A DNA stretch of 64,000 bases from a phage, in assembly GCA_024672275.1 (NCBI GenBank), contig GCA_024672275.1_4536.1, one strand, 5' to 3'. Both the position numbers and the translations under genes were made by a program. Below are positions 10,835 through 63,003 of this stretch, piece after piece; positions within the stretch are counted from its first letter, which is position 1, and each line of letters opens with the position of its first letter. Under the pieces are notes generated by a model. It was given only the letters and a program-made list of their open reading frames with translations. It searched no databases and was not told where the DNA came from.

Positions 10835-11233
10835 ATGGCTAAAGGAATTACTTTATCTAACTCTCGCCAGGAATTCGGACACCTGGTTCTGGGTGGAGTG
10901 TTTAGCTCTGACCTTGGACACTGTGTACGTGAAGTTAACCTGGTTAAAACAGCAACCATGAAAATTGGTTCTATCCTGAAAGCTGACAACACTGAAGCTG
11001 CTAAAGCTGAAGCTGCCGATGCTGCTAAAGTTCTGATTTGGACTGATGCTCTGTTCGGTATTGACGATGTAGCAGTAGGTGACACTTTCACCGCAGTTGT
11101 TGGCGTACGTGATCTTACTCTGAACCGCTTTGCAGTATACTACAAAGATGGCTCCCTGGTAGATGACGCTGGCGTAGCAGCACTGGAAACACATGATCTG
11201 AAACTGACCGAAAAAGTCGTTTTCACTTCTTAA
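10835..11233 (+). CDS. putative head decoration protein (lambda gpD-like position)
   Basis: 132 aa; immediately upstream of gpE-like capsid gene; strong RBS; highly expressed-type codon usage. Confidence 0.45.
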   Translation: MAKGITLSNSRQEFGHLVLGGVFSSDLGHCVREVNLVKTATMKIGSILKADNTEAAKAEAADAAKVLIWTDALFGIDDVAVGDTFTAVVGVRDLTLNRFAVYYKDGSLVDDAGVAALETHDLKLTEKVVFTS

Positions 11234-46606: not shown

Positions 46607-49600
46607 TCAGTGACAACTGGCCCAGGAATTCCCCACGTCATATCCAGCAGTAAGCTGAACATTAAGATTGTAAAATTCTCCAGCCTTAGTAACAGCTAAA
46701 GCAGCAAGTTCACCTGCCCGACTATAAGCTGTAAACCATCCACCTTTGGGAGATTCATGAATGTTAGCCCAAATTTGCCCTGTCTCTTTTTCCTTATTAT
46801 GCTTCCATTCTTCAACTTTAGCAAGGCATTCTTTATCAATTTTCTTTTGTTCTTCAGGATCGTCTACTTTCTTCCAACCTAATGATTCAGGTGAAAACCA
46901 TTTGAATTCTACGAGGTTACGAGAAACTTCAAGCTGGGCTTCATCGTGATATGCAATCATTTGTTGCACGAAGTCTTTATTCTTCCAGTCATCTTTAAAG
47001 AAGTCAACACTTAATCCTTCTTCTTCGATCATATCGTCATAAATAACCATTGCACGTTTAGCACAGATAACCCCACCGCTTTGGAACAGAGAGTTAAGAA
47101 TCGCGTGAGCAGAACGAGTAGGAACCTTACGACCGTCAATACCCAAAACATATTGTTTACCAGTCTTAACCCAGAAATCGTTTAAACGTTCTTTAAGACG
47201 CGCCAATGGGAATGCAGCTTCCCAGAAAGCATCGAACACCAATTGACCTGTAAACTTATCGCTACCAATTGTTTTAGCAACCTTGTCGGCTTGTGCACCA
47301 TAGGTAATACCATACTTAACAGATTTAGCAGGACTACGTTCAAATTTACGTCCAATAGTTTCAGTGATACGTTTTGCCATCATTGTGTGAACATCATTAG
47401 GTTTCTCTAACAACAGAGCGTTACAATATTCGTGTGGCTCCGGCTCGTACCGCCAACAGTTTCCTGTGATGGTAATGCAGTCTTTCTGACGCATGACCCA
47501 CGTACCAAGTTCTGTTTGTGGACACCAAACATCCTCTACACCCCACTCTTCAATAGTCAAACTTTGAACAGGAATGTGAGAGCGGTTAGTCAATGTTGCC
47601 ACTTTTACTTTCTGCTCTTTTGTATTGAAAGCTACAGAGATATTGCCTCCATGCACCAGGTACGAGGCAGTTAAAGCTGCTTCAAAAAGTTCACCTGGGT
47701 TCTGCGCCCAACGCCAAACAGGTTTTTGTTTATGTTCGTGCCAGTAACCATCTGCAATCAAGAAACCTTCCAAGAAAGCTACACGCTCGGCATGAGACAT
47801 ATTAACTACACGTTCTACCCACGGAACATCCCATTTACCTTGTTGAACATAAGTTAAACTATTTACCTGATCTTGTTCCATGTTAAATGGAGCATTACAA
47901 ATAATGTTATCTCCTGTGCAAAGCTCGGCAGTTGTTCTGACTTTAGGCACATAAGTATTCCCTTTACTACGGGTATTAACATACCAACGGTGATCTGCTG
48001 TTGCACGGTAAGTGTGTGATTTCCCTTTAATCTCAAACGTCTTACTATTTTTATAGAAGACCTTACCTTTTACTTTAGTCCATTCTTTCAGACCTGTTTC
48101 AGCATTGTACCCTAAAATCTCATCCCCTTCCTTCAGGTCGTGATATCCTACCCAACCTTTACGAGTCAAAGCTTGAGCATCCATCGGCACACAGTAGTGT
48201 GATTCAATTTTTGCTTCCAAAGAGTCGAAGTCGTAGCCAATCTGGAAGTATTTAGGAACCTCTACACCAAACAAGTTACGCATCTCCCATCCAAACAAAG
48301 ATGTGACACGAGGAATATTAGCTACAGATCTGTGCTTCATACGAGAAGTTGCAGCATCACATGTAGCGGCTGGGGTAGGAATACGACCATCTGCCCTTAC
48401 TGCGGCTAAGAAACCTTTATCGTATTCTTGATCTTCCTCATCTTCTTCCCAATCAGCACCACCACCTAAAATAGAGTTCCTACGATGTTTATACGTTAAG
48501 TATTCTACAATCTGCGTAGCATAAGGGAATTTCTCACCCAAAGCTTGCAGGTTAGGACAAATTTCTTTTTCCTGACCTTTGGTAAAACATGGGTTAGTCA
48601 ATACTTTAAGACCGCGACCTTTACCTTTTGCTATACGCTCTTGAATCTTCCTTTCCAAAGTTTCCGGTGTGCACTCCAGATGATCACAACGATCCTGACA
48701 AAAATTAGAAGATAGAGTTTGCTCAACGTAAGCTCTAATACCTTTCTGAAGTTCTTCCTCGCTCTTTTTAATTTTGGTGCCAGATTTAAGCGTCAAGTCT
48801 TTATCTTTATATTCAGACGGTACCCAACCTAATCCTACAAGCCAGTTTTTAATATGGGTTGTATCGTTCAATGTTGCAGGAATGTTAGGATCACATAGAG
48901 GCTCATCTGCTGCAACTGGCAGTTTCCACTCTTTCCCCAACATAACTAACCACCAATCGCCATCCCTCTCTTCCAAATGACCATCATGTTTCTTAGCAAA
49001 ATTGATCATATGGTTAGTTGGCTCTAAGTTCTTTTTAATTTGCAACTTAGGTGGAATAAAAGCCTTAAGATAACCTTTTGTTGCTGGTTTAGGTGGCAAA
49101 ATAGGCTCAACGAGTAAACGAAGACGCTCCATTTCTGCATCCAAAAAAGCAAGGTTCTCTTCTGCTTGTTTCATGTTAAAAGCAAACCCACGGTGTTCCT
49201 GGCGTGTAATAATGTCTGCTACACGTTGTTCAAGTTCAAATGGACCTTCCCATTTATCATAATCACCCCATTCTTCCATAAGGTAATTATATACGCTCGT
49301 ATTGGCTTTGTTGTCATAGATACAGTAATAAAGCATATCCGCAGCAAAAGTCTTAAATCGATCTTCTTCTGGAATCTCTTTACGGAAATCTATTTTTACA
49401 TCACCACCTGCTTTTCGAGAAAGTGCTGCCAAGCTATGTCCTGATTTGCCCTCAATCTTTCGATCTGGGTTTAACACTTTACTCAAAATCAAGGAGTCAA
49501 TAAGTTTTACCTTATTTTTGCCCCACGTATTATATTTAACACTGTAATCTAATCCATAAAACAGTTTTGTAGCCAACCAGTCGTAGTTGATACCGTTGTG

Positions 49601-49939
49601 AGCCACAGCCATTTCAACTAGATATTCAGGCTTGTCTTTAAAATAACCTTCATGATTAATAAAATCTGGGAAATCTTTTAGTTGAAAATGTGTGTAATCT
49701 TGCGCCACATACTCTTTAAGAACATATGTGTATTTACCATCTGACTCTTCGTAAGGACGCCCATCAAAGATGTATTTAGGGCCATCGTGGAAAGCTACTA
49801 TTTCTCCTGTTTCATGGTTCTCTAAGACAATACAGTGCATTTGAAATGTGTCTTTGAGACGATAAGGACTAGCTAAATAATCAATAGTGTCATTATTCAA
49901 CAATCCGTTTGCTTCAATATCCCATGTAAACTTACTCAC
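46607..49939 (-). CDS. DNA polymerase, family A with N-terminal 3'-5' exonuclease, interrupted by an intein
   Basis: 1110 aa; exo motif DIEANGL; motif A-like DFDSLEAKIESHY split from downstream extein; motif B RSPAKSVKYGITYG (compare Klenow RRSAKAINFGLIYG). Confidence 0.85.
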   Translation of the reverse strand: MSKFTWDIEANGLLNNDTIDYLASPYRLKDTFQMHCIVLENHETGEIVAFHDGPKYIFDGRPYEESDGKYTYVLKEYVAQDYTHFQLKDFPDFINHEGYFKDKPEYLVEMAVAHNGINYDWLATKLFYGLDYSVKYNTWGKNKVKLIDSLILSKVLNPDRKIEGKSGHSLAALSRKAGGDVKIDFRKEIPEEDRFKTFAADMLYYCIYDNKANTSVYNYLMEEWGDYDKWEGPFELEQRVADIITRQEHRGFAFNMKQAEENLAFLDAEMERLRLLVEPILPPKPATKGYLKAFIPPKLQIKKNLEPTNHMINFAKKHDGHLEERDGDWWLVMLGKEWKLPVAADEPLCDPNIPATLNDTTHIKNWLVGLGWVPSEYKDKDLTLKSGTKIKKSEEELQKGIRAYVEQTLSSNFCQDRCDHLECTPETLERKIQERIAKGKGRGLKVLTNPCFTKGQEKEICPNLQALGEKFPYATQIVEYLTYKHRRNSILGGGADWEEDEEDQEYDKGFLAAVRADGRIPTPAATCDAATSRMKHRSVANIPRVTSLFGWEMRNLFGVEVPKYFQIGYDFDSLEAKIESHYCVPMDAQALTRKGWVGYHDLKEGDEILGYNAETGLKEWTKVKGKVFYKNSKTFEIKGKSHTYRATADHRWYVNTRSKGNTYVPKVRTTAELCTGDNIICNAPFNMEQDQVNSLTYVQQGKWDVPWVERVVNMSHAERVAFLEGFLIADGYWHEHKQKPVWRWAQNPGELFEAALTASYLVHGGNISVAFNTKEQKVKVATLTNRSHIPVQSLTIEEWGVEDVWCPQTELGTWVMRQKDCITITGNCWRYEPEPHEYCNALLLEKPNDVHTMMAKRITETIGRKFERSPAKSVKYGITYGAQADKVAKTIGSDKFTGQLVFDAFWEAAFPLARLKERLNDFWVKTGKQYVLGIDGRKVPTRSAHAILNSLFQSGGVICAKRAMVIYDDMIEEEGLSVDFFKDDWKNKDFVQQMIAYHDEAQLEVSRNLVEFKWFSPESLGWKKVDDPEEQKKIDKECLAKVEEWKHNKEKETGQIWANIHESPKGGWFTAYSRAGELAALAVTKAGEFYNLNVQLTAGYDVGNSWASCH
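47459..48193 (-). mobile_element. intein (245 aa) with LAGLIDADG homing-endonuclease motif, inserted just after polymerase motif A
   Basis: starts Cys583 (CVPMDAQALTRKGW), TxxH block (TADH), LEGFLIADGYWHEH, ends ...DCITITGN followed by Cys(+1). Confidence 0.7.
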
Positions 49940-50733
49940 TATTCCTCCTTTCTAATGTTCTCCAGAACCCACTGAAGTTCTTTTAAACTTAAACTTCTTA
50001 CTCCCGCAGTTTTACTAGCTTCAGCTTTAAGTAACGGGTAAGCCTCAATGATACGCGTTTTAAGATCAGAAGTCAAGGCTTTTAAAAAATAGGTAGATGC
50101 TTCAGATAAAGAATCTTCTTCTGATAACACTTTACCTGCACTTGCTCCCGCTCTCCTAACGACTATATCGTAGTCTTTACTGTTACCTAATACGAATAGT
50201 CGATTCTCTCCTAAAACAACGGGAGAACGCTTCTCGTTGCGTTTAATCCATACCTGGAATACACAAGGAACATCCCAAGGTTCTCCATGAAGAATAAAAG
50301 ATCCTTTTGGACATTCTTCTTCGTAAAGAAGATGCATATGGGGATTTAGCTTGTGTGCAAAAAAGATTTTTTGAAATGTGCGAGGCAAGATAAAACAAAT
50401 ACCACCTTCGTTATCCAGCATTTCAGCACAATGGTTAAAGAATTTAATGGCAAGACTAGCATTTTTTCCAAATGGAGGATTACCGACAAAAGCAGTTACA
50501 CTACCAACAGACTCAACAGATTGAGCTAAAAAATCTGCCTCAATACAATCTTCAAACTTAGGGTCAATATCAAAAGAAGTTATGTTTTTAAAACAAGAAG
50601 AGAAAGCTCCTTCTCCCGCAGATGGTTCTACGTAGTTAGCTTCCTCTCCAAAAATTTCTTTGATCTTATCACATAAGAACCCCGCATAAGCGGGGTTAGT
50701 GTAATATTGATCAAGTGTGTTCAACTTGCTCAA
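49939..50733 (-). CDS. DNA N6-adenine methyltransferase
   Basis: 264 aa; motif I-like VEPSAGEGAF and catalytic NPPF (DPPY-class) in FVGNPPFGKN; stop overlaps polymerase start. Confidence 0.6.
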   Translation of the reverse strand: MSKLNTLDQYYTNPAYAGFLCDKIKEIFGEEANYVEPSAGEGAFSSCFKNITSFDIDPKFEDCIEADFLAQSVESVGSVTAFVGNPPFGKNASLAIKFFNHCAEMLDNEGGICFILPRTFQKIFFAHKLNPHMHLLYEEECPKGSFILHGEPWDVPCVFQVWIKRNEKRSPVVLGENRLFVLGNSKDYDIVVRRAGASAGKVLSEEDSLSEASTYFLKALTSDLKTRIIEAYPLLKAEASKTAGVRSLSLKELQWVLENIRKEE

Positions 50734-51268: not shown

Positions 51269-53045
51269 AATAGTTGCTATCCGTAGGCAAATTAGCAGGA
51301 TTGTTGAAATACTGCTCTTTGTCATGCAGAGTTGCAGTTCTAATATCATAGTAAAACTGCCCTGCTGGACCAGTTTCCGAGAACTCACGGTTTTTTAGGA
51401 TAAAGCAATGAGTCGTATTGCGTTCTACAGGGTCTTCAGCGGCTTTATCTCGTTCCAAAGCCAAGGTAATACCAGCACCTTTAGCCAAGAAACTACTACC
51501 CATTGCATCGTCCTCTGTTAAGTGTTCATTGCCACCATTAGCCGACTTCTTAACGTGTGAGATGACGATAATGGTTATAGCATACTCTTTCATGATGCGC
51601 TTCAACCATGTTGCTAACTCTTCCTGGGCTTGAACATCCATACCAGAAAGCAAATCAGAATAAGGGTCGATAACAAGAATTGTTACTCCAAAATAGATGA
51701 TCATCTCCAAAACTTTTTCTTTGATAGACTCCACATCTGCTCCACGATCATCACACACATAAAAACGTGGTGATCCATCTTCTCTTTCGTAAAAATCTAG
51801 GATTTTTTCTTTATTCTCTTCCAAGATTTGAAATTTCTCTTCCGGTGTTTTCCTGTGTAGAGGAATATGCAGGAACGAGGACAACAGGTTACGAGAATAT
51901 TTCTTATAAGTTGCTTCCAAGGACAGAATGCCTAGGGTATGTTCTGGGTGCGCAACAATAATATGTTTGGTGATCTCGTTCACCATCAAAGTTTTACCGA
52001 TACTGGTCTTTGCCAGGATGACGGTAATCTCTTCCTCTACTAAACCACCACCCAGCATGTTTGCAGCTACACGCATAAAAGGAGGCAAGGTAATCATCTT
52101 GGATTCCAAGCATTCTAATGCAGCTTCATACAAGACATTAGAAGCATAAACACCTGCTGGGGTATATAGACGAGCACTCCAAAAAGCTTTTACGAAATCT
52201 TTTGCACGACCTTCTTCCAGATACTGATTGGCATCCTTAAGATCCATCTGCATACGGTAGACTTTGTTACGAGGCAGCACCTTAACAATATTTTCAAATG
52301 CCTCATTACCTGCTTTGTCATTATCCATGCAAACAATAATCTTCTTAAATTTTTCAAAGAAAGGATATTGTGCCTGAACTTGTTTATACATACTGGTTTC
52401 ACCAGTTGTGCCACTAACTACTGCTGGAAGTTCATATTTGTTGTCCAAGTTTTCAGACAGCATTTGATAAGCTGCCAGAGCATCGTGTTCACCACCTGTA
52501 ATTACCACAGTATGAGAACGGTCTGCAAAACGAATTTGTCCAAAAAGATCTACATCTTTACCTACTTGACCAATAGGTTTACTGAAATCTTTAGGATGGA
52601 TACGACGCTTAAAACCAACCAATTCTTTACCGATGGTAGTTGGATATAAACAACTTTCTACTACCATCTGATCCCCTTCCTGACGGTATTCATAACGAAC
52701 ACCATAGAAAGATGAAACTTTTTCTTTAATGCCTCGATAACCACGTGGGTTGGTTGATGTTTCTTGAACAATTTTACGATGAATCTGTTTATTAAATTCC
52801 GAACCCACAATCTCCTCCTCTTCTTCTAAAACTTCACCATTTTCTCGTAACCATTCTACGCTAGGAATAGTGTATTCACACGCAAAGCACTTAGCACCTT
52901 TATGCTCTCCATTAGAATCTAATCCATAAACCATCAGGTTATTACGAGAGCGATCCTTGCCATTTTTCATGCAGCGCGGACAACCTGTATGCCCTTCCTT
53001 GCTAAGATCAACATCAAATCCATATTTAGTTATAATGTGCGACAC
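51267..53045 (-). CDS. bifunctional DNA primase-helicase (T7 gp4-like)
   Basis: 592 aa; N-terminal zinc-binding CPRC...CFAC, TOPRIM-like VVITGGEHDALAAY, C-terminal helicase Walker A (AKTSIGKT) and Walker B-like motif. Confidence 0.8.
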   Translation of the reverse strand: MSHIITKYGFDVDLSKEGHTGCPRCMKNGKDRSRNNLMVYGLDSNGEHKGAKCFACEYTIPSVEWLRENGEVLEEEEEIVGSEFNKQIHRKIVQETSTNPRGYRGIKEKVSSFYGVRYEYRQEGDQMVVESCLYPTTIGKELVGFKRRIHPKDFSKPIGQVGKDVDLFGQIRFADRSHTVVITGGEHDALAAYQMLSENLDNKYELPAVVSGTTGETSMYKQVQAQYPFFEKFKKIIVCMDNDKAGNEAFENIVKVLPRNKVYRMQMDLKDANQYLEEGRAKDFVKAFWSARLYTPAGVYASNVLYEAALECLESKMITLPPFMRVAANMLGGGLVEEEITVILAKTSIGKTLMVNEITKHIIVAHPEHTLGILSLEATYKKYSRNLLSSFLHIPLHRKTPEEKFQILEENKEKILDFYEREDGSPRFYVCDDRGADVESIKEKVLEMIIYFGVTILVIDPYSDLLSGMDVQAQEELATWLKRIMKEYAITIIVISHVKKSANGGNEHLTEDDAMGSSFLAKGAGITLALERDKAAEDPVERNTTHCFILKNREFSETGPAGQFYYDIRTATLHDKEQYFNNPANLPTDSNY

Positions 53046-53057
53046 TTTGTTCTCCTG

Positions 53058-53336
53058 TTAAAATGGTTCGTTAGTCTCCATCATATATTCTGCTTCTAGT
53101 TCTTCCATATGCTTTCTAAATTGGAAAGCAATTTCTGCTACAGTTACATTTAAATCTTTTTCAAAAACTTCTGTAGAGCCTTCATAAAAACGAATACCGT
53201 CAATTAAAAGCCCTCCGTGGTAATCCCAATCACTTTCACGAGAAAGCGGGTTAGGCTCTTCATAATAGTAATCCACCTCCACAACTAAGGCTTTCCCGTT
53301 ACGAGTGGTGTATTCAAAATCAAAAGTGTTAATCAT
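53058..53336 (-). CDS. hypothetical protein (92 aa)
   Basis: ORF with ATGA-type overlap to upstream gene. Confidence 0.45.
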   Translation of the reverse strand: MINTFDFEYTTRNGKALVVEVDYYYEEPNPLSRESDWDYHGGLLIDGIRFYEGSTEVFEKDLNVTVAEIAFQFRKHMEELEAEYMMETNEPF

Positions 53337-54280
53337 TATAGCTCCTCAAATAAAAGTCTACGACGCTCATTCAACACATCAATGTGATAATGAGTCCTGA
53401 CATACTTAGCTAATGCTAATCCTTTCTCCATGCAAACATCGGGAGCACTTAATAAGTATTCCGTAATATCTTTCCACTCGGAAGGTGTTTCAGCAAAGAA
53501 TAACAAATCTTTAAACTCTTGTGTATGATAATTCTCACGAGGAGAACAGATCAAAGGTAAACCCTTAGCACCTGCCTCAAGAATTTTAAGATTGCTTTTT
53601 GCATTATTAAACACGTTATCAATCAATGGCGCAAGACTGATTTGATGACCATCGTAAGATTCCATGTAGTTGGCATATGGTCTTACACCTTCATAAACAC
53701 AAGTTGGTGCTACATTTTCTCTGATTACAGACCATTCACGACTACTTAAAACTTCAGAATCCCTACGAAAACCACATATTGTAAGGTCTTTACCAAAATC
53801 GGGCAAGATAGCCAAATCTTGTTTATGTGTTTCACTTCCAGCCCAGACTAATGGAGTTTTGGAGTAGCGATCACGGGTCAACACAAATTGACCTTCATCG
53901 TAAGGAAGTCCATTAGGGATTATGTGCACATTATCATTGTATTGTGAAAGTTCAACTTGCAAAGCAGGTGTCGTAGTTGTAACAAGATCGCTGTGCTCTA
54001 AAAACCATTTTAAATGTTCACGAATACCTGATTCAAAAATACCTTCTAACATGTGTCCTTTTGGAATAACTAAAGAGTCATCCAAATCCATAACCATTTT
54101 AAAGCCTAGGTTTTTAAGGGCTAAAAAGCCCTCTTTACCTTTTGTTGGCACTCCGTTAAAAACGAAAACGTTGTATTTAGGTTGTGAAGAGAACTGCCTT
54201 GAGTAAGGCAGCACTACCCTATGGAAATCGCAGACACTATAATTGATTCCGTTACGATTGTCAAGAATTATTTGTCCCAT
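53336..54280 (-). CDS. putative glycosyltransferase, GT-B/GT1-like (paralog 1)
   Basis: 314 aa; C-terminal KILEAGAKGLPLICS resembles GT1 E-x-x-A-x-G-x-P motif; paralogous to 54288..55235. Confidence 0.5.
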   Translation of the reverse strand: MGQIILDNRNGINYSVCDFHRVVLPYSRQFSSQPKYNVFVFNGVPTKGKEGFLALKNLGFKMVMDLDDSLVIPKGHMLEGIFESGIREHLKWFLEHSDLVTTTTPALQVELSQYNDNVHIIPNGLPYDEGQFVLTRDRYSKTPLVWAGSETHKQDLAILPDFGKDLTICGFRRDSEVLSSREWSVIRENVAPTCVYEGVRPYANYMESYDGHQISLAPLIDNVFNNAKSNLKILEAGAKGLPLICSPRENYHTQEFKDLLFFAETPSEWKDITEYLLSAPDVCMEKGLALAKYVRTHYHIDVLNERRRLLFEEL

Positions 54281-54287
54281 ACTTCAC

Positions 54288-55235
54288 CTACAAACTTTCA
54301 ATAACCTGGCGTCGCAACTCATTTGCATCTGCCAGATTATAATGTGTTCGAACATGTTCAGCCAAGAACAAGCCACGATCTTCCCGATAGTTTGGATTGC
54401 GAAGAAGCTTAACAATTTCGTAATGCCATTCTGCTTTGTTCTCTGCGTAAGCAACAGCACGAGCATCTACAGGGTTAAAATAAGGTAATACCTTAGAACA
54501 AACAATCGGAATACCCTTTGCTCCAGCTTCTAGGATTTTGAGATTACTTTTACAATTATTAAAATCATTATCTACCAAAGGAGCTATAGCAATAGCATGA
54601 CTTTCGTAAACACTCATGTAATTATCTAAATCTTTTACAGCAGCTTTATATTTAGCATTTGGTAAATTTCTGCGAATCTTAATCCACTCTTGTCCCGTGA
54701 TGCTCTGCGATGCTTCATATCCCGCAATAGTAAGAAGTTCATCATCGAAAGTATTAGAGACTAGTCGTAAATCGGGTTCGTGACTAGCACCGCCAGCCCA
54801 TACAACAGGGGTACCGGATGAACGATCATTTGACAAAGTGAATTGTCCACTATCAAAAGGAAGTGCATTTCGGATCACAACAACATTCCTATTTAAGTGA
54901 CGGATCTTATATGCCAAATATTCTGTAGTCACAATAACCACATCAGCAAGCTTAACCATAGCTACAATAGCATGAGTGTTTGACTCGTATAGACTTGCTA
55001 AATAATGTTCTGGATTAAGTTGGTAGAAATCATCTAAATCTACAACAATCTTAACACCTTGACGTTTCAAAGATAAAACGTATTCTGCACCTTTAGAGTG
55101 GATACGGTTAAACACAACAACATCTTTCTTAGGTTGAAGATTATGGTTGTTAAATGGCATAACAATACGATGATAGTCACAACCGCTGTGAGGTTTTGCA
55201 TCAATTTTTAGTTTAGACCATTTTTTATTTGACAT
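54288..55235 (-). CDS. putative glycosyltransferase, GT-B/GT1-like (paralog 2)
   Basis: 315 aa; shares CDYHR, VVDLDD, PVVWAGG, SNLKILEAGAKGIPIVCS, VRTHY blocks with the adjacent paralog. Confidence 0.5.
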   Translation of the reverse strand: MSNKKWSKLKIDAKPHSGCDYHRIVMPFNNHNLQPKKDVVVFNRIHSKGAEYVLSLKRQGVKIVVDLDDFYQLNPEHYLASLYESNTHAIVAMVKLADVVIVTTEYLAYKIRHLNRNVVVIRNALPFDSGQFTLSNDRSSGTPVVWAGGASHEPDLRLVSNTFDDELLTIAGYEASQSITGQEWIKIRRNLPNAKYKAAVKDLDNYMSVYESHAIAIAPLVDNDFNNCKSNLKILEAGAKGIPIVCSKVLPYFNPVDARAVAYAENKAEWHYEIVKLLRNPNYREDRGLFLAEHVRTHYNLADANELRRQVIESL

Positions 55236-55908
55236 GTGCTAGTGCCTCCTCATAGGAAATTCGGATTTTCCCATTTTTAATATCCTCTAAAGATGCTTTA
55301 TATTCTTCCCAGTTAATCCCGATAGCAGCTTCTTTCTCTTCTTTTGTCAGATTAGCAAAAGGCATAGGATTGTTTCCAAAAACATCGTCTGGGTGGATAT
55401 AAGCCATGATACGAAGTGGACAAGGTGTTGCCTGAATACCATGATTCAAACCAGCAGCTTTCAAACGGTGTCCCCATTCGGCATCTTCAAAACCATAACC
55501 GTGAGTGTAAGGGCGGAAATAACCCATCTTCTCAACAACGGCACGAGAATACATTGCAAATTGACACATTGCAAGTTCCCAGAGAATAACTTCTCCTTTG
55601 CTTCCAACAACTTTATCTTTGAAGTACTCCGGCATACCAAAGAAATCCCATCCTCCAGAAACAGCTTGATCTACAAAGTATGTTTCCCATCCTTCCATGA
55701 CTGGGTAGCAATCGTCGTCAAAAATAAACCAATAATCATAACCTTCTTCATAAAACTGGTGTATAAGTTCATTCCTGGCATAAGCTACACCTTTACGGTC
55801 TGGATCGTTGAATACTCGAAAATCTGCACGTGGATCTGTTACAAGGTAGTCTTTAAGTGGGCGGACACCTACAGTGATAACACCCACTCCGATTTTAATA
55901 TTTTCCAT
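55225..55908 (-). CDS. putative glycosyltransferase, GT-A-like (DxD)
   Basis: 227 aa; GVAYARNELI ... DYWFIFDDDCYP pattern typical of nucleotide-sugar GT-A enzymes. Confidence 0.45.
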   Translation of the reverse strand: MENIKIGVGVITVGVRPLKDYLVTDPRADFRVFNDPDRKGVAYARNELIHQFYEEGYDYWFIFDDDCYPVMEGWETYFVDQAVSGGWDFFGMPEYFKDKVVGSKGEVILWELAMCQFAMYSRAVVEKMGYFRPYTHGYGFEDAEWGHRLKAAGLNHGIQATPCPLRIMAYIHPDDVFGNNPMPFANLTKEEKEAAIGINWEEYKASLEDIKNGKIRISYEEALAHVK

Positions 55909-55916
55909 TTTCTCTC

Positions 55917-56480
55917 CTAAATAGTTTTACTGTGATCGTGACAGTGTAATAAATGATGTATAGACCGTTGAGGATTTGTTTGACCTAATCTGTAAATGTG
56001 AAACAGATACATTCCCCGCATCAATCCTAACCTCTTTCCTTTTTCATGTAAAGTGCGAGAGAAAATTAAGTCGAATTGGATAGATTTTTCTTCAAAAGGA
56101 ATTTCATTCCACAATGATTTTCTAAAAAGCAAAAAGAAACCTGCCAAAGGTGTTCCGAAAGGAACTTCTTCAACACTCACTTTATGATATTCTCTTGCAA
56201 TCTTAGCATATTCTATATGGTTTAGAATATCTGGATCATCGTTAATTTGGTTAGAGAAAAGCTGATAACCACTGCCTAACCTGTTACAAGTTGCACCTAT
56301 TACATCAAAAGGCGGGTTTGACATAACAAGCTCTTCAAGCATAGATGGTTGATCAGGTAGGAGGAACATTGTATCGGTATCTCTTAAACACACCCAACTA
56401 TCATCTGGAAGAACGGCAATGGCTTCATTGATAGCCTTGCCGATATTTCCTGTCAGATAGGGAGTAATATAATAAATCAT
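55917..56480 (-). CDS. putative glycosyltransferase-like protein (second DxD protein)
   Basis: 187 aa; LRDTDTMF DxD-like motif after N-terminal beta-alpha start. Confidence 0.35.
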   Translation of the reverse strand: MIYYITPYLTGNIGKAINEAIAVLPDDSWVCLRDTDTMFLLPDQPSMLEELVMSNPPFDVIGATCNRLGSGYQLFSNQINDDPDILNHIEYAKIAREYHKVSVEEVPFGTPLAGFFLLFRKSLWNEIPFEEKSIQFDLIFSRTLHEKGKRLGLMRGMYLFHIYRLGQTNPQRSIHHLLHCHDHSKTI

Positions 56481-56496
56481 TCTCCCCTCCGTTATA

Positions 56497-56688
56497 TTAA
56501 CTGTCGGCTACAATCCCGCGTTTAATCATTTCCTGTTGGATTTGGATGACACGATCTCGTGCTTCCATGTATTCTTTAAAAGATTCTTGAAGATGGTCAC
56601 GAGCTACGTCTCGTAGCTTAATCAGTTTGTCGTTTGTCACTTCTTGAAGAGAGATTTCGCCAGTTTCATTGGTCCCAAGCGTTTTCAT
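56497..56688 (-). CDS. hypothetical small protein (63 aa)
   Basis: ORF with overlapping start/stop coupling. Confidence 0.4.
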   Translation of the reverse strand: MKTLGTNETGEISLQEVTNDKLIKLRDVARDHLQESFKEYMEARDRVIQIQQEMIKRGIVADS

Positions 56689-56896
56689 TTACAACCTCCT
56701 TAATAGCTACTGCACAGTTCTTACAAATACATTGACCTTTGTTCTTAGAAATTTCAATGTAAGGTTCATTTTCGTTTTCTCCGCGTCGTGAGTCGTATAT
56801 TACTGTATTGAAGCAGACAACGCAAATGTTTTTAATAACGACATATTTTTGCACTTTCTGTTTAGTGCGAAAATTGACTTCAATGACTTCTCCCAT
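56666..56896 (-). CDS. small zinc-ribbon protein (76 aa)
   Basis: ATG 56896 with GGGGAG RBS; CVVCF ... CICKNC. Confidence 0.45.
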   Translation of the reverse strand: MGEVIEVNFRTKQKVQKYVVIKNICVVCFNTVIYDSRRGENENEPYIEISKNKGQCICKNCAVAIKEVVNENAWDQ

Positions 56897-57181: not shown

Positions 57182-57703
57182 TTAACTCCCCTTTGGTAGA
57201 TAGAAACCATGCACTTTATCTCGATAAACAAGACGCATATCACGTTCCCAGTGTGTCTTTATATTCCGTTTCTTGAAATATAGAGCACCTTTAGTAACAT
57301 CTAAAACAGACCGCAATTCAGGAAAATGTTTCTCTAGATAAAGTAAACGCTCCGCTATTGCTTTTGCTTCCTGCCACTTATCTTTCTCTGTTACGTTAAA
57401 AGTTTTCGCATATGAGAATTGTCCTTTCTGGAACAAGACTCCTCTGACTGTGTTAGGGAAGTAGGTATCATTTCTTCTGTTGATTACCACATTCCCAACG
57501 GCATTCATTCCTTTTTTACCCAGACCGCGACCTTCTGCGTAAATTGCACAAGCTAATAGAATTTTATCATTATATTGCTTTGTACATTTGTGAACTACTT
57601 TAGCGGTTTTTACGTTTGCAGCTTCGGCTTTCGCCACAACAGGTGTAAATGTAAAAGCAGTTAAGGATAGTAACGCAACTGTTACAAAGTTTTTTATCAG
57701 CAA
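57182..57703 (-). CDS. secreted cell-wall hydrolase, SleB/CwlJ-like (candidate signal-peptide endolysin)
   Basis: 173 aa; TTG start with AAGGAGG; N-terminal signal peptide (LLSLTAFTFTPVVAKA); ACAIYAEGRGLGKKGMNAVGNVVINRRN matches SleB/CwlJ core. Confidence 0.65.
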   Translation of the reverse strand: MLIKNFVTVALLSLTAFTFTPVVAKAEAANVKTAKVVHKCTKQYNDKILLACAIYAEGRGLGKKGMNAVGNVVINRRNDTYFPNTVRGVLFQKGQFSYAKTFNVTEKDKWQEAKAIAERLLYLEKHFPELRSVLDVTKGALYFKKRNIKTHWERDMRLVYRDKVHGFYLPKGS

Positions 57704-57802: not shown

Positions 57803-58405
57803 TTATGGACATTCATACCATTCTTTTTTACCACCGAAGGCCATCACCACATCACAAATATCCAGACCAGCTTTACCTACACCATATGCTTTCAGCTTCC
57901 ATTCCCCATCTTCACGAACCAAGGAAGCCACGTGGCAGATTGTGTTGCCAGCTACTTCAGGAGCCAGGAAGTCAAAATCCAGAATTTCCACATTGCGCTC
58001 GGAGTCAAAGATTTTAAGCATACCTTCAGAAGCATGACCAAAACGTTTCAGACCTGTATCATCATCAATGGTCAGAACAAAGGCAATCTCTTGTGCATCA
58101 GGAGAGATTTTAGCCAGAGTAATATCAATCTGCTCCATGCTGCCAGTTCCATCACGAACATCGTCACCAGCGAAGGTAGAACGTTCAGGATCAAACTTGT
58201 TAGCATAGCAAACCAGGTGACGTGCAGACAGCATTTCAGGATTGCCAGCGGCATTGTGACGACAAACCAGTGCACTTACATCCAGATCCAGTTTAGAATC
58301 AGATTTCCAAGAGAATTCCAGGCGCAGTTCTTTCAGAGCCGGAGCAACTTTCTTCAGGGAAATTTTTTCGCTAGAGCCTTTTTTCAGGGAAATTTTATCA
58401 GTCAT
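57803..58405 (-). CDS. TerD-family protein
   Basis: 200 aa; MTDKISLKKGSSEKISLKK, DLDVSAL, AFVLTIDDD, REDGEWKLKAYGVGKAG align block-for-block with bacterial TerD. Confidence 0.75.
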   Translation of the reverse strand: MTDKISLKKGSSEKISLKKVAPALKELRLEFSWKSDSKLDLDVSALVCRHNAAGNPEMLSARHLVCYANKFDPERSTFAGDDVRDGTGSMEQIDITLAKISPDAQEIAFVLTIDDDTGLKRFGHASEGMLKIFDSERNVEILDFDFLAPEVAGNTICHVASLVREDGEWKLKAYGVGKAGLDICDVVMAFGGKKEWYECP

Positions 58406-58420
58406 CTTTTGTCTCCTCTA

Positions 58421-58690
58421 TTATTTAAGTGTAATACCAGTTACAGTCAATTCTACTTCCAAAAGCTTAGATGTGTTTTGGATTGATACTAATTGTGCAT
58501 GATGGTTTAGTTCTACAGCAGAACAATCATTTTCCCCATCATCTACTTTTAAATAAACAATGATTTCACTAAGGTCTAAACCATTTTCGTCAAATGCATT
58601 TTCATAGACGAAAGTATCTCCTACATCCAAATCTTTAATGGTAAGGCATCGTTTATTTACTTTTTGCTCATCAATTTCGAAGTTTAACAC
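58421..58690 (-). CDS. small partner protein, paralog B of duplicated cassette
   Basis: 89 aa; LDVGDTFVYENAFDENGLD ... VELTVTGITLK; paralogous to 59712..59990. Confidence 0.5.
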   Translation of the reverse strand: MLNFEIDEQKVNKRCLTIKDLDVGDTFVYENAFDENGLDLSEIIVYLKVDDGENDCSAVELNHHAQLVSIQNTSKLLEVELTVTGITLK

Positions 58691-58919
58691 TTCTTCCTCC
58701 TAATGTTATCTCCGGTTTGTATATACGAAGAATTATAGCATTTTCATTTTCTTTGTCAACCCATTCTTCATAATCGGGCCATACATGAATCTCTACTCTA
58801 CTTACAATATCTTCCATTCGCACAGTCCCAATGAAATACTCTTTGAGACTGCGCATAATGAAAGCTTCTCTCTCGCGCCAATAATTTTCTATGACTTGAG
58901 AGGCAAGCTCGTCGATCAT
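58671..58919 (-). CDS. hypothetical protein (82 aa)
   Basis: ORF between the two cassettes. Confidence 0.4.
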   Translation of the reverse strand: MIDELASQVIENYWREREAFIMRSLKEYFIGTVRMEDIVSRVEIHVWPDYEEWVDKENENAIILRIYKPEITLGGRSVKLRN

Positions 58920-59710
58920 TTTTTAGCACCTACTTTAACAACCCACTCTCCGAACTCTTCAGATAAGAGTTTGTCATAAAGCTCTGAATCTGTCAAGTCT
59001 AAATCTTTAATGCCAATAAAACCAACATTATCATAAGCATTTGCCAGTTCTTTCAGGAAGCCGAACTTCTCATTACCAACGCCAACCATGAACCAATAAA
59101 TAGGTTTATTCTTATTCTCTTCGATAAGACGACGAACAGCACTAGGATCACCATTCTCACCATCCGTCTGGAAGAATACAACACCAGGGGTAACGTCAGC
59201 ACCTGGTTCAGATACAGCTACAACCTTTTCACGCTCTACAGATACTGTTTCAGTTTTACCAAGCAGACGATTAAAGAAGCCTTTCTTTGGAGCCTCTTCT
59301 TGTACCACTTGTTTAGTGGTAATATATTTGGTAACAGTGCCAAAATACTCATCGTAGATATCTGCCATTACAGGGGCGTAATTTGTTCCACCTCCGATAC
59401 GAACATTACGCATACATTTACCAACATAGTCATCGTAAACGTCTGCTGTTGCTGGAGTAAGCTCTTGAGAACTCGTATTGAAGGCCCACATGTCAATTTG
59501 TTCATTATCGTCGAACAGCATACCAAAAGGAAGCAGTTTACCTACAAAATCACTCACTACCCCACGAGCATATAGACCATGCATACTACCAGAAATATCT
59601 AAAGCACATGCTACACGAAGAACAATCTTACCTTCATTCAGGTTCTTATTCTTTTTCAGAGAGAAAGCAAGGTTTTCTTGACGTTTTTTCAGGCTGATTT
59701 TCTCGGACAT
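58916..59710 (-). CDS. vWA-domain protein with TerD-like N-terminal leader
   Basis: 264 aa; MIDAS-type ALDISGSM and downstream GGGTNY; N-terminus MSEKISLKKRQENLAFSLKK mirrors the TerD N-terminus. Confidence 0.6.
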   Translation of the reverse strand: MSEKISLKKRQENLAFSLKKNKNLNEGKIVLRVACALDISGSMHGLYARGVVSDFVGKLLPFGMLFDDNEQIDMWAFNTSSQELTPATADVYDDYVGKCMRNVRIGGGTNYAPVMADIYDEYFGTVTKYITTKQVVQEEAPKKGFFNRLLGKTETVSVEREKVVAVSEPGADVTPGVVFFQTDGENGDPSAVRRLIEENKNKPIYWFMVGVGNEKFGFLKELANAYDNVGFIGIKDLDLTDSELYDKLLSEEFGEWVVKVGAKK

Positions 59711-59711
59711 A

Positions 59712-59990
59712 TTATTTCTCCTTCTTAAGTGTAATGTTGGTAACTTCTAAATCTACTTCCACCATATTTGTATCTGGCGGGATGCAATGAGTATATCCTC
59801 GTTGTGCTAGTGATCCATTAATACAGATCGCACTGTTTGTGGAATTTTTAATGAACACCAAGTTACGGTAGGTATCCAACCCTGCGTCTTCATAGGCATC
59901 ATAATACATGAATGTGGCCCCTATGCCAAGATCTTCGAAAGCAATAGGTAAATCCTGACACTTTTCTTCTTGAATATTGAATCTAAACAC
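59712..59990 (-). CDS. small partner protein, paralog A of duplicated cassette
   Basis: GTG 59990..59988 with GAGGAGG upstream (ORF-track start 60056 overlaps upstream gene); LGIGATFMYYDAYEDAGLD ... VDLEVTNITLKKEK. Confidence 0.5.
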   Translation of the reverse strand: MFRFNIQEEKCQDLPIAFEDLGIGATFMYYDAYEDAGLDTYRNLVFIKNSTNSAICINGSLAQRGYTHCIPPDTNMVEVDLEVTNITLKKEK

Positions 59991-60546
59991 GCATACCTCC
60001 TCTACCAATTTTGAAGCCCAAATCGTAAGCTTCCTTAGTGATCTTTTGTAACTCACTTATAGGAAGTGTTACAAGAGGATCATCTTCTTCAATTTCCATC
60101 TTGTCATCTTCTGTTTCAATGAGAGTATTATGCACTTTGTGATAAGGGTTGTCAACACGTTTAAACTTATTCTTTTCTGTGCTGAAAAAACAATCTGGAT
60201 CTTCTTCACCATCACCCCAACCTTGGTTAGGATCTCCGTCAGATTGTTCTGTAGGGATTTCACCTGTAAAGTACTCTTCCAGCACCATAGCAATACCGTC
60301 CCTTGGATTTGAGGAATGCATTAAATCACAAACCTTACCCCAATCCATAGCCCATTCGAACCGTTCACGAACGCCATTTTCATCCTCCTTTCCAGAGAAA
60401 ACACAACCATAACTATCATAGTTGCCATACATCTCTTCAATAACAACACCGTCCTTCAAAAGAAAGAGATAACAAGGTGATCCGTCGAAAGAAGTAGAAA
60501 GGGCAGCTTTGCCCGATTCCTTACACAAAAAACTAAAACAACCCAT
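59983..60546 (-). CDS. hypothetical acidic protein (187 aa)
   Basis: ORF with RBS; Asp/Glu-rich C-terminal half. Confidence 0.45.
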   Translation of the reverse strand: MGCFSFLCKESGKAALSTSFDGSPCYLFLLKDGVVIEEMYGNYDSYGCVFSGKEDENGVRERFEWAMDWGKVCDLMHSSNPRDGIAMVLEEYFTGEIPTEQSDGDPNQGWGDGEEDPDCFFSTEKNKFKRVDNPYHKVHNTLIETEDDKMEIEEDDPLVTLPISELQKITKEAYDLGFKIGRGGMRV

Positions 60547-60944
60547 TACAAACCCTCCTTCAGATTATCAAGAGCTACAGTGGTTTCACAAAAGTCTCCA
60601 TACGTTTTATGATGTTCTAGAAAAGCTTCAGGTCCACCCCAATCATTATCTTGTGTATTCCAGCCATCAATAAAAGCATCTTCAATGATTGTGATCAGTT
60701 CCTGTCGAGTCAACGTAATGGTATCAGGTTTCTGCGTAGTTTCCACACGGAACCCTGGTTCTTCATAAAAACCTTTAGTTACAATGGACTCTAACTCTTC
60801 TGCATCACAGAGGAAGTAGCCACAAAGATAACACCAACCGTCATCATCTTTCATTACTTCATAAACTTCACCACTTGCTAACTTGATGAAAAGAGTAGGG
60901 TCTGTTACTGTAAGTTTTAAAAGAATACCTGTTGGATTATACAT
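60546..60944 (-). CDS. hypothetical protein (132 aa)
   Basis: ATG with GAGGAGGAAG RBS. Confidence 0.45.
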   Translation of the reverse strand: MYNPTGILLKLTVTDPTLFIKLASGEVYEVMKDDDGWCYLCGYFLCDAEELESIVTKGFYEEPGFRVETTQKPDTITLTRQELITIIEDAFIDGWNTQDNDWGGPEAFLEHHKTYGDFCETTVALDNLKEGL

Positions 60945-61110
60945 CTTCTTCCTCCTCTAAAATATGGAACCCGTAATTACAATAATCCTGAAAGGTTTCG
61001 TGTGCAAGATCTTCTATATCCTCTTGAGACATATCATCTTCAATTTCGATATCCACAACCTCATTGCATCCACACCAAGCAGTTTCAATATTCACTCGTA
61101 ATATTTTCAT
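60937..61110 (-). CDS. hypothetical small protein (57 aa)
   Basis: ATG 61110..61108 overlapping upstream stop; ends ILEEEEDV; below ORF-track cutoff. Confidence 0.35.
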   Translation of the reverse strand: MKILRVNIETAWCGCNEVVDIEIEDDMSQEDIEDLAHETFQDYCNYGFHILEEEEDV

Positions 61111-61307
61111 TACTCCTCCTCCTCATTGAAGTCAATATCTGCAAGGAGTTCGAATTTACGGAAGTTACGACAACCTTCATAAATATAACAATCACGACAA
61201 ACTGCTAGAACACTTGGGGGATATATGCCTCCCATCGGCGCGAATCGTTTTTCGTCATCATAACGGACACCAATGTCCTCATCAATTATATAGATACGGA
61301 TTCTCAT
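61110..61307 (-). CDS. hypothetical small Cys-containing protein (65 aa)
   Basis: ORF with start overlapping TelA-like gene stop. Confidence 0.4.
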   Translation of the reverse strand: MRIRIYIIDEDIGVRYDDEKRFAPMGGIYPPSVLAVCRDCYIYEGCRNFRKFELLADIDFNEEEE

Positions 61308-62416
61308 TTACCAAGCCCTCGTTTCACAGCAGCTACCATCCCGTCTTCCAGAGATTGAACTTCGTTAATATAATCAACACGAGCAGCACGGGCTTCCGTA
61401 TTGATGCGGTTAGTTTCTTCCAACATCTTAACCAAGTTTTCCTGATCGTGACGCAGAGTTTCAATATCCAACACTTGACGGTTAGCCAGTGCTGCTGCTT
61501 CGATCTGATTCTGTGTGGCAAGATCGCTACCCAGTTTAATTGCCAGGTTAAATTCATCAAGAACGTTATTCTGCGTCTCTGCTGCTTTCATTTGACGTAA
61601 GCTCTCGATATACATTGAGAAGTTAGCAGAGTAAGCAGGAATAACATTATTTACTATATTACGCGCAGATCGCATTAAGCTTGCAGAAACTTTTTGCATA
61701 CCTTGTACACGCGGTCCCATTTGGACACACAGTAGGCGCAATGCCTTTAAATCTGCAATACGAATCTCCAGAAGATCCAAAGTATCTCGGATCACTTGTC
61801 GCTGTTCTACTGCATCTTCTGGAAGAGCAGCCAAAGCTTGTTCTTCTTTTTCATAGGTTGCTGTTAGAAGCTGCATATCTCGGTTCAAACTTGCAGCATA
61901 TTGTCCAATAGCTTGATGTAGCTTTTCAAGATATACCAAGGAATCTTCTTCTTTGCGAATATCCATTTGAAGGTTCTTTACCAACTCTTCAATACGGTTA
62001 TTAACATTATCAAACTCCCCAAACAGGTCTTCTTTCATACCCATAACTTTTTTAATGAGTTTAGTAATACCCTTGCTTTGTTTAATAGAGTTTGGATCAA
62101 GTTGTTTTGCCTGTTTAATCAAAGCTGTGAGTCGTTCACTCATCTGATCGCCTTGATTACTACGTTGATGTTTTAACACCTCGGCATTCAAGGAACGCAA
62201 GGTTGTTCCTGCCTCTGCCCCAATCTCTTCAATCTCTTGTCGGGTCATAGAAGGCAAAACTGGAACTTCTTGCGGTGCCGCTGGTGCATAAACAGGACTG
62301 GCATCTAACACGCTTGGAGCGAATACAGATTTACTTGCATCTGTTGTTGCAGCGAATACACTCATTTCAGACTTCTTCTGACCACCAGTAGCTGCTTTTA
62401 AAAATGGACTTGTCAT
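61304..62416 (-). CDS. TelA-like (toxic anion resistance family) coiled-coil protein
   Basis: 370 aa, largely helical; size and composition fit TelA/KlaA and it sits next to TerD and vWA genes; family call is inference. Confidence 0.4.
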   Translation of the reverse strand: MTSPFLKAATGGQKKSEMSVFAATTDASKSVFAPSVLDASPVYAPAAPQEVPVLPSMTRQEIEEIGAEAGTTLRSLNAEVLKHQRSNQGDQMSERLTALIKQAKQLDPNSIKQSKGITKLIKKVMGMKEDLFGEFDNVNNRIEELVKNLQMDIRKEEDSLVYLEKLHQAIGQYAASLNRDMQLLTATYEKEEQALAALPEDAVEQRQVIRDTLDLLEIRIADLKALRLLCVQMGPRVQGMQKVSASLMRSARNIVNNVIPAYSANFSMYIESLRQMKAAETQNNVLDEFNLAIKLGSDLATQNQIEAAALANRQVLDIETLRHDQENLVKMLEETNRINTEARAARVDYINEVQSLEDGMVAAVKRGLGK

Positions 62417-63003
62417 TCTTCATTCTCCTCTTCTGCATCTCTTATATATGGTGAAACACCGTACTCTTTAGCTACTTTAACCCAATCATCCCATTTATAC
62501 AACCATAATTTTCCTTCAGTTCCTTCTTTATCTGATTTCAACCACATGTTAGGTTGCTTGCCTGGGTACATGCGATTAGGTTTACGATTATAACCTCTAA
62601 CACATCTTGTCGCAAACCTATCTACCAGAACAAGAACATATTTATATTCGTGGTTCAACGGCTCTTTGGAAGTGGCTTTAGGATTAGCCCCTAACTCTGC
62701 TGCCAGTTTTTGCCAATGAGCACCGTGTCTACTAAACTTACCCATACAACCATCAATAGCATGAGCAATTTCGTGCTTCATTGTATCCACGATCATGTCT
62801 CTTGTGGAGTTCTTATGCAAGTGCCAATTTACAACAACAATTTTATCTCGGTAGTTGCACCAACCGAAAGAGTTATTCACTTTGTTTCTAACACAAGCTT
62901 TATATCCTGCTTCATGTAACATGTTGTAGTAAACAGGAAAATCTTCTTTTATTTCCTGCATCACTTCCCACCACAAGAGTTGCAAGTCTCTCTCGGTATG
63001 CAT
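62413..63003 (-). CDS. SprT-like zinc metalloprotease domain protein
   Basis: 196 aa; HEIAHAIDG ... HGAHW matches SprT-like HExxH ... HGxxW arrangement. Confidence 0.6.
   Translation of the reverse strand: MHTERDLQLLWWEVMQEIKEDFPVYYNMLHEAGYKACVRNKVNNSFGWCNYRDKIVVVNWHLHKNSTRDMIVDTMKHEIAHAIDGCMGKFSRHGAHWQKLAAELGANPKATSKEPLNHEYKYVLVLVDRFATRCVRGYNRKPNRMYPGKQPNMWLKSDKEGTEGKLWLYKWDDWVKVAKEYGVSPYIRDAEEENEE

Follow-up and report, generated by a model that had tools for sequence, protein, structure and literature searches.

A mobile glycosyltransferase cassette in phAPEC8-like coliphages and its possible role in the glycosylation of virion proteins

What acceptor do four consecutive glycosyltransferase (GT) genes serve in the genome of a coliphage? 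The question is raised by positions 53336-56480, minus strand, of a 64,000-nucleotide stretch of phage DNA (contig GCA_024672275.1_4536.1; "the window" means this whole stretch), for which the initial annotation had proposed glycosylation of phage DNA bases as protection from restriction, with glycosylation of the virion or of the host surface as a fallback. The window belongs to a phAPEC8-like coliphage of the genus Phapecoctavirus, subfamily Stephanstirmvirinae. Positions 53000-56800 are 98.5-99.5% identical to Escherichia phages ETEC-TG, EF1-1, anhysbys and phAPEC8, ETEC-TG being 99% identical over the cassette region, and because the GT block recurs at 95-99.5% identity in 65 deposited phage genomes it is not a product of chance. 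The genes themselves are already known and annotated: they are called "glycosyltransferase" in RefSeq and Pharokka-style records of phAPEC8-like and phi92-like phages, with more than 70 near-identical Phapecoctavirus genomes so labelled in RefSeq, and the record of EmilieFrey, a phi92-like phage of the BASEL collection, lists two as "putative disaccharide synthase" and two as "putative glycosyltransferase". In the literature on these four genes we found speculation only and no experimental work. What we add is a widespread, mobile core of one GT-A and one GT-B gene, repeatedly linked to deoxyhexose enzymes and to packaging or head genes, together with evidence against the DNA reading and a bacterial homologue linked to an adhesin. 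On these grounds we tentatively propose that the enzymes assemble a short glycan on virion proteins.

All four genes encode glycosyltransferases, two of them GT-B paralogues (GT1 and GT2) and two DxD-containing GT-A enzymes (GT3 and GT4; Table 1). Each protein matches a PHROG labelled "glycosyltransferase" over its full length (E 1e-79 to 1e-149; phrog_7162 is matched by GT2 at E = 1e-148 and by GT1 at E = 5e-145), and the limits of the block are exactly those first proposed. The two motif copies from which a tandem GT-B pair had been predicted, KILEAGAKGLPLICS and KILEAGAKGIPIVCS, are present in the two GT-B proteins, which share 41% identity over 303 amino acids (E = 6e-77) and, judged by this alignment, are true paralogues. 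GT1 just passes the Pfam cut-off for Glyco_trans_1_2 (25.2 bits, cut-off 25), while GT2 stays below the cut-offs for Glyco_trans_1_4 (22.8 bits) and Glyco_trans_1_2 (20.4 bits). Across the family, 32 of 36 members match PF13524 and 28 of 36 match PF13692 at E <= 0.01, and the C-terminal nucleotide-sugar-binding Rossmann domain of the GT-B clan profiles is present; the N-terminal profiles Glyco_transf_4 and Glyco_trans_4_4 are matched by five and three of the 36, respectively. GT2 has 209 homologues, and its invariant columns are C19/H22/R23, D66/D68/D69, H77, H152, K229-S-N-L-K233 and E236.

NCBIfam returned nothing for any of the four proteins, and when profiles of all three protein families were run against PDB sequences, only chance-level matches came back. 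GT3 and GT4 have no above-threshold sequence match in Pfam, NCBIfam or the PDB. Their DxD motifs, FDDDC in GT3 and RDTDT in GT4, had already been pointed out, and the aspartates prove to be invariant: D64-D65-D66 is constant in 18 GT3 homologues (F63-D64-D65-D66 and E141-D142 are invariant, H172 is conserved in at least 90%), and D34-x-D36 is constant in 22 GT4 homologues, along with invariant H161, Y163, R164, H176 and C180. AlphaFold2 models of both are confident (pLDDT 90.9 for GT3 and 90.7 for GT4), and in these models each is a single Rossmann-like alpha/beta/alpha domain nearest to known GT-A structures. Fold support for the four genes thus comes from profile matches, confident models and invariant DxD motifs. 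None of the four proteins has a segment of transmembrane grade (the maximum 19-residue Kyte-Doolittle mean is at most 1.65), and three of the four are acidic.

The genes are separated by gaps of 7-8 nucleotides, with an 11-nucleotide overlap between GT2 and GT3, and a terminator scan found no minus-strand terminator-like site inside the block. A promoter scan was uninformative, promoter-like sites being only modestly above the shuffled expectation. The packing is operon-like, and we propose that the four genes form a translationally coupled cassette.

A mobile gene pair and its neighbourhoods

A profile scan of IMG/VR returned 335 relatives of GT3, and 80 loci were kept for neighbourhood counts. 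A GT-B homologue adjoins the GT3 relative on the same strand in 64 of the 80, while GT4 is found in only 17, from which we conclude that the conserved unit is the GT-A plus GT-B pair. The distribution of the remaining genes suggests that GT4 and the GT-B duplication are lineage additions to this core. The duplication was seen only in Stephanstirmvirinae-type loci and metagenomic relatives, with two GT-B copies per genome in Phapecoctavirus and Justusliebigvirus and one in some Klebsiella relatives and in prophages. The core pair is spread through phages of Enterobacteria, Pseudomonas, Chitinophaga and other Bacteroidota, and on the evidence of gene content and order the cassette is mobile between phages, its core being GT3 and one GT-B gene.

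A scan of genomes, one per species for 100,044 species, yielded only 21 loci, most of them prophage-like. In a Serratia prophage the GT4-like, GT3-like and GT-B genes stand in the same order as in the window (identities of 41%, 37% and 51%) and the cassette lies between the lysis genes and HNH/TerS/TerL, TerS and TerL being the small and large terminase subunits. Pseudomonas prophages carry a GT3-like and a GT-B gene directly upstream of the packaging genes. In Chitinophaga prophages the GT-B gene has an SPP1-type portal gene on one side and, on the other, a 524-amino-acid open reading frame (ORF) that occupies the place of terminase; that ORF has no Pfam match and was not detected as TerL in our proximity count. 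The count covered 100 cassette loci with a radius of 7 kb, and a TerL-like gene was present in 45 of them, downstream of the cassette in 42 of the 45.

Distant loci of low identity place the pair inside larger clusters with a second GT-A gene (phrog_14945), one to three GT2-type genes, several FkbM-type methyltransferases and unassigned genes, followed by a small helix-turn-helix protein and a T4-type TerL. These versions total up to about eight GT and O-methyltransferase genes. Examples of such extended clusters upstream of a T4-type terminase are loci L044, L050, L063, L074 and L077, with up to three FkbM methyltransferases. The added GT-A, GT2-type and FkbM genes suggest a complex glycan rather than a single sugar as the product. 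No flippase, polymerase, initiating phosphoglycosyl transferase, ligase or membrane-anchored GT was seen in the loci examined.

Donor sugar and candidate acceptor

An indication of the sugar comes from genes for 6-deoxyhexose metabolism. Outside the window, roughly 70 kb from the cassette, ETEC-TG has genuine RmlC and RmlD genes, which score 225.4 bits against an NCBIfam equivalog cut-off of 155.75 and 239.1 bits against a cut-off of 224.05, respectively. Counts of RmlD and GT-B by organism name are nearly equal in isolated phages (107 each for Escherichia; 5 for Campylobacter-labelled phages, 3 for Phapecoctavirus and 3 for Justusliebigvirus; 8 against 10 for Klebsiella). An Enterobacter huaxiensis prophage has a short-chain dehydrogenase/reductase resembling dTDP-glucose-4,6-dehydratase between its GT4-like and GT3-like genes, and in the Chitinophaga cassette a methyltransferase matching RMNT_CmcI, a rhamnosyl O-methyltransferase family, is next to the GT-B gene. 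In this way the cassette is linked to 6-deoxyhexose chemistry in three independent lineages. E. coli itself makes dTDP-4-keto-6-deoxyglucose, either with RmlA/B or with RffH/RffG, the corresponding enzymes for enterobacterial common antigen (ECA). From this host intermediate, phage RmlC and RmlD would probably be enough to finish dTDP-L-rhamnose. No RmlA or RmlB is annotated in ETEC-TG, and its "nucleotidyltransferase" ORF has no Pfam match; Olsen et al. (PMC7552041) described the rhamnose pathway as complete.

Our tentative proposal, to which we give somewhat less than an even chance, is that the cassette serves to build, in the cytoplasm, a short glycan containing rhamnose on the proteins of the virion. 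The four soluble enzymes would work there one after another while the phage grows lytically, and their product would be an oligosaccharide of no more than about four sugars, at least one of them probably L-rhamnose or some other 6-deoxyhexose. As donor they would use dTDP-L-rhamnose, supplied through phage RmlC and RmlD as outlined above, and the most likely acceptor would be a protein, specifically the structural proteins of the virion. The association with particle-assembly genes, the O-methyltransferases, the lack of membrane machinery and the solubility of the mostly acidic enzymes all point to a protein acceptor in the cytoplasm. Glycosylation of the virion or host surface, initially offered as the second choice, fits the comparative evidence better than glycosylation of DNA, and of its two halves we prefer the virion.

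Further support for a protein acceptor may come from bacteria. Of the GT-B homologues that we examined, two are clearly chromosomal and lie outside prophages: those of Trinickia symbiotica and Burkholderia dolosa, which share 41-45% identity with the phage protein over its full length. In these Burkholderiaceae islands (L087, positions 4742-11026; L088, 3025-8440; and L097) a gene for an inverse-autotransporter invasin/intimin is followed by an ORF of 555-571 amino acids, with no significant Pfam domain, and then by the GT-B homologue; the Trinickia island is inserted between purF and queA. The island may be an uncharacterised adhesin-glycosylation system. The autotransporter heptosyltransferases Aah/TibC, and GtfA-GtfB of the serine-rich repeat adhesins, are soluble GTs whose genes lie next to that of an adhesin, the protein that they modify prior to its export. 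By analogy, the arrangement in Burkholderiaceae recalls such cytoplasmic glycosylation of surface adhesins, with the homologue of the phage GT-B directly behind the invasin/intimin-type gene, and would support a protein acceptor; GtfA-GtfB is also a pair of GT-B paralogues, as are GT1 and GT2. The phage cassette differs in showing no detectable sequence membership of these families, only generic Glyco_trans_1_2 and Glyco_trans_1_4 Pfam matches, and in lacking the partner genes: no phage homologue of either the Burkholderia adhesin or its partner protein turned up in a search for them.

Several points weigh against virion proteins as the acceptor. The searchable literature contains no report of a glycosylated virion protein from these phages, and the structural proteins in the window have no convincing Ser/Thr-rich tails, unlike glycosylated mycobacteriophage capsids. 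The cassette here sits in a replication-gene block and not beside head genes, and a position adjacent to terminase is also possible for DNA-modification genes. The carrier phages have unrelated capsid types, so that recognition of a common acceptor is hard to account for. The association with an adhesin comes from one bacterial lineage only, the link to RmlC and RmlD within Stephanstirmvirinae is confounded by shared ancestry and by a separation of about 70 kb, and the GT-B fold of GT1 and GT2 is assigned through profile matches only.

Phage-encoded virion glycosylation has precedents. In mycobacteriophages of the Che8, Corndog and Myrna type, soluble phage GTs expressed in lytic growth place short glycans on capsid or tail proteins, sometimes with an O-methyltransferase alongside. 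By analogy, the closest functional parallels of the cassette would be the gene sets for virion glycosylation in mycobacteriophages and chloroviruses, with which it has only the fold in common. Soluble glycosyltransferases are phage-encoded in both the mycobacteriophage systems and the present one, but there is no close sequence kinship (about 25% identity at best to actinophage GT-B genes), and the present system has Gram-negative hosts and shows no Ser/Thr-rich acceptor tails in the structural proteins of the window. PMC11256854 echoes mycobacteriophage virion glycosylation. The capsid glycan machinery of chlorovirus PBCV-1 (A064R; PDB 2p6w) and the A197 glycosyltransferase of Sulfolobus turreted icosahedral virus (PDB 2c0n) are among the closest known systems.

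If the proposal is correct, virion glycosylation would extend from actinobacteriophages to phages of Gram-negative bacteria. Members of Phapecoctavirus and the phi92-like phages infect a broad range of hosts and turn up repeatedly among isolates considered for therapy or biocontrol. Virion glycosylation in mycobacteriophages shapes antibody recognition, and a glycan on the present particles could affect neutralisation, pharmacokinetics, adsorption and particle stability. The 335 IMG/VR relatives also define a compact and widespread GT-A plus GT-B module.

Other candidate acceptors

Alternatively, the soluble enzymes could modify lipid-linked or lipid A-core intermediates on the cytoplasmic side of the membrane, altering the lipopolysaccharide (LPS) core, the O-unit or ECA of the host and leading to receptor masking, superinfection exclusion or conversion of the lysogen surface. 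There are reasons to consider such a role: ECA and LPS core are receptors of these phages (PMC8594841), the closest structural neighbours of GT3 and GT4 include many GT-A enzymes for polysaccharide, teichoic acid and LPS, lambdoid-type prophages carry the cassette in the slot between lysis and terminase genes, a frequent site for accessory genes, and automatic JGI annotations read "cell wall biosynthesis" or "diacylglycerol glucosyltransferase". Nevertheless, we think a host-envelope target unlikely. The membrane-bound and lipid-linked steps expected of such a pathway have no candidate gene in any locus examined, the four proteins are devoid of membrane segments, and the same core pair serves phages of Enterobacteria, Pseudomonas and Bacteroidota despite their differing envelope acceptors. 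The prophage cassette is co-oriented with the late genes and lies right upstream of terminase, which suggests lytic expression, and a short lytic cycle is too brief for new LPS to replace the LPS already on the surface.

The GtrABC modules for O-antigen glucosylation are likewise sets of sugar-transfer genes borne by temperate phages of Enterobacteria, but they consist of a membrane flippase, a bactoprenol glucosyltransferase and a transferase at the periplasmic face and lie near the attachment site, whereas the cassette proteins have no membrane segments and the cassette lies beside late genes in prophages. No flippase, bactoprenol-linked GT or membrane transferase of the Gtr type was found in the loci examined. 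Judged by these tests, the cassette would be classed neither with the Gtr modules nor with the T-even DNA glucosyltransferases, and it has no above-threshold TAGT match.

A different soluble target, either a non-structural protein of host or phage (a translation or defence factor, for example) or a small molecule, seems to us rather improbable. One small-molecule candidate would be the predicted nucleoside-like product of the neighbouring Ter-type cluster, whose TerD, vWA-TerF-like, TelA and SprT-like genes adjoin the cassette on the same strand and which, in ETEC-TG, extends into genes for a ComF-like phosphoribosyltransferase, a hydrolase and a phosphatase. The residues on the acceptor side (N-terminal) of the GT-B protein, C19, H22, R23, D66, D68, D69 and H77, are invariant across very different hosts, suggesting a chemically constant acceptor, but that acceptor could simply be the sugar added by GT3. 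We give the link to the Ter cluster less weight, since prophages and most IMG/VR loci have the cassette but no Ter genes. Nor is the cassette accompanied by any conserved gene that might encode the target, and a target of this kind would explain neither why terminase and portal genes lie close by nor why a bacterial homologue is linked to an adhesin.

The function first proposed for this locus, in which sugars (perhaps rhamnose) are placed on phage DNA bases for evasion of nucleases, is in our estimate quite unlikely. Olsen et al. (PMC7552041) speculated about rhamnosylation of hydroxymethylated nucleotides in these phages, and rhamnosylation of hydroxymethylated bases is likewise suggested in PMC10844046. 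The cassette does share a replication block with primase-helicase, polymerase and a methyltransferase-like ORF, and a C5-cytosine methyltransferase family (four members) is directly upstream of it in the two loci examined for gene order, L074 and L077. To activate a base for such transfer a modifying enzyme would be sought elsewhere in the genome, as the initial annotation had advised. The deposited annotation of the whole ETEC-TG genome, which served as our check for base modification rather than a complete hidden Markov model scan of every ORF, lists no dCMP/dUMP (ThyA-type) hydroxymethylase, TET/JBP, 2-oxoglutarate (2OG) oxygenase, deazaguanine or other base-modification gene. The sole thymidylate-synthase-like gene in ETEC-TG is a divergent ThyX homologue (35 bits for Pfam Thy1; 31.6 bits against a TIGR02170 cut-off of 87.9). 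We considered whether it might be a hidden hydroxymethylase and rejected the idea, as its homologues occur in 1001 phage records and are ubiquitous in groups such as the Vequintavirus, ICP1, PB1-like and N4-like phages, which are not among the GT-B cassette matches. No TET or 2OG oxygenase was found among the recurrent IMG/VR neighbours, although not every hypothetical ORF was profiled, and in small temperate prophages the 16-21 kb surrounding the cassette showed no gene for nucleotide modification or nucleotide metabolism.

The similarity of the cassette proteins to known DNA-acting transferases is slight. GT3 matches TAGT (PF20691) with 19.0 bits against a cut-off of 27.5 (E = 0.0015), over residues 32-68 (37 aligned); a TAGT-domain protein ranks 26th, with a TM-score of 0.42, in a viral fold search with GT3; and GT3 also has weak local similarity to the PHROG of the T-even beta-glucosyl-HMC-alpha-glucosyltransferase, HMC being hydroxymethylcytosine. 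We rejected both leads as local similarity around the DxD motif. None of the four proteins matches the T4 AGT or BGT Pfam families at E <= 1, bearing in mind that HMMER filters may drop very weak matches. The T-even HMC glucosyl- and arabinosyltransferases and TAGT are likewise phage GTs encoded near DNA-metabolism genes, with a weak resemblance to GT3 in the DxD region, but they differ from the present case, which has no annotated hydroxymethylase or TET, only sub-threshold TAGT similarity and a restriction-sensitive phage group. The acidic character of three of the four proteins also speaks against a DNA acceptor, and the up to about eight GT and O-methyltransferase genes of the distant versions exceed the needs of any known DNA sugar modification.

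The restriction data come from Maffei et al. (PMC8594841), who found that Vequintavirinae and relatives, "despite a putative dTDP glycosylation machinery", were "exceptionally susceptible" to restriction of types I, II and III in a panel of six systems (EcoKI, EcoCFT_I, EcoRI, EcoRV, EcoP1_I and EcoCFT_II). EmilieFrey, of this group, carries a syntenic cluster of four GT genes beside primase/helicase, as well as RmlC/D. With no annotated precursor pathway, sub-threshold TAGT similarity and a restriction-sensitive phage group, bulk protective glycosylation of DNA is unlikely, and the claim of an anti-restriction role is not supported. For "rhamnose modification of DNA" in Stephanstirmvirinae, a recurring speculation, the genomes offer no backing in the form of a precursor pathway, and the reported sensitivity to restriction conflicts with it. 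We regard as very improbable a new class of hypermodification in which rhamnose-containing sugars would be put on phage DNA directly, without hydroxymethylase or TET, for example as sparse, sequence-specific marks on canonical or methylated bases that would leave the phage sensitive to the six BASEL restriction systems while blocking other defences.

Neighbouring genes and other features of the window

Table 1. Positions of the cassette genes and of other features in the window
Feature	Position	Strand	Description
tRNA cluster	1957-3879	plus	ten genes: Met, Arg, Ser, Asn, Thr, Gly, Gln, Pro, Ile, Met
Polymerase ORF	46607-49939	minus	family A polymerase, 1110 amino acids
Polymerase insert	47461-48190		244 extra amino acids
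Methyltransferase-like ORF	49939-50733	minus	264 amino acids
92-amino-acid ORF	53058-53336	minus	function unassigned; possible accessory gene, cassette membership uncertain
GT1	53336-54280	minus	314 amino acids, GT-B paralogue of GT2
GT2	54288-55235	minus	315 amino acids, GT-B glycosyltransferase, cassette core
GT3	55225-55908	minus	227 amino acids, GT2-like GT-A glycosyltransferase, cassette core
GT4	55917-56480	minus	187 amino acids, minimal GT-A glycosyltransferase, first gene of the cassette
Cell-wall hydrolase	57182-57703	minus	Pfam Hydrolase_2, SleB-like
Ter-type cluster	57803-63003	minus	adjoins the cassette
TerD	57803-58405	minus
vWA-TerF-like	58916-59710	minus
TelA	61304-62416	minus
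SprT-like	62413-63003	minus

On the coding strand the GT genes are followed by the primase-helicase (Toprim and DnaB_C), the methyltransferase-like ORF and the family A polymerase. Transcription order therefore puts the GT genes upstream (5') of these genes, not downstream of them as had been stated. The assignment of the neighbouring ORF as a methyltransferase needs qualifying. The ORF has the motifs EPSAGEGAF and NPPF, typical of N6-adenine methyltransferases, and matches one functional family only, a DNA-methyltransferase PHROG, over part of its length (E = 1e-10, residues 4-119), but it has no Pfam match and is called hypothetical in the ETEC-TG annotation.

The ORF that follows GT1 shares one base of its start with the GT1 stop. 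It matches phrog_4240 (function unassigned) and has no Pfam match. It is kept after GT1 in eight Stephanstirmvirinae-type loci, and its EmilieFrey counterpart is bas61_0045; it was not seen in the prophage cassettes.

The polymerase ORF is longer than its 865-amino-acid counterpart in ETEC-TG. The insert begins with Cys (CVPMDAQ...) and ends in ...TGN, followed by Cys, and it contains a LAGLIDADG-like motif, LEGFLIADGY; the flanks are 99.7-100% identical to ETEC-TG. The insert resembles an intein carrying a homing endonuclease, one that this isolate possesses and ETEC-TG lacks.

Upstream of the cassette, three small ORFs away, lies a cell-wall hydrolase that is annotated as the endolysin in ETEC-TG and whose N-terminus is a hydrophobic, signal-like segment, MLIKNFVTVALLSLTAFTFTPVVAKA. 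Its position echoes the order of lysis genes, small ORFs and GT cassette in the Serratia and Enterobacter prophages. The Ter-type cluster of ETEC-TG extends past the limits of the window, and that of EmilieFrey also includes a macrodomain protein.

Among the deposits that match positions 53000-56800 or the GT-B protein at 98.4-99.5% are phages named for Acinetobacter (ABPW7), Campylobacter (B15) and Klebsiella (ZCKP1), and a Pseudomonas-named record, its identity not listed, is among the matches as well. These host labels are odd for a genus of E. coli phages and look doubtful. The tRNA set of the window is not quite the one annotated in ETEC-TG, where a Tyr tRNA is listed and Met occurs just once. 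The GC skew changes sign at about 44 kb, coinciding with the change from plus-strand structural and tail-fibre genes to the minus-strand block of replication, GT and Ter genes.

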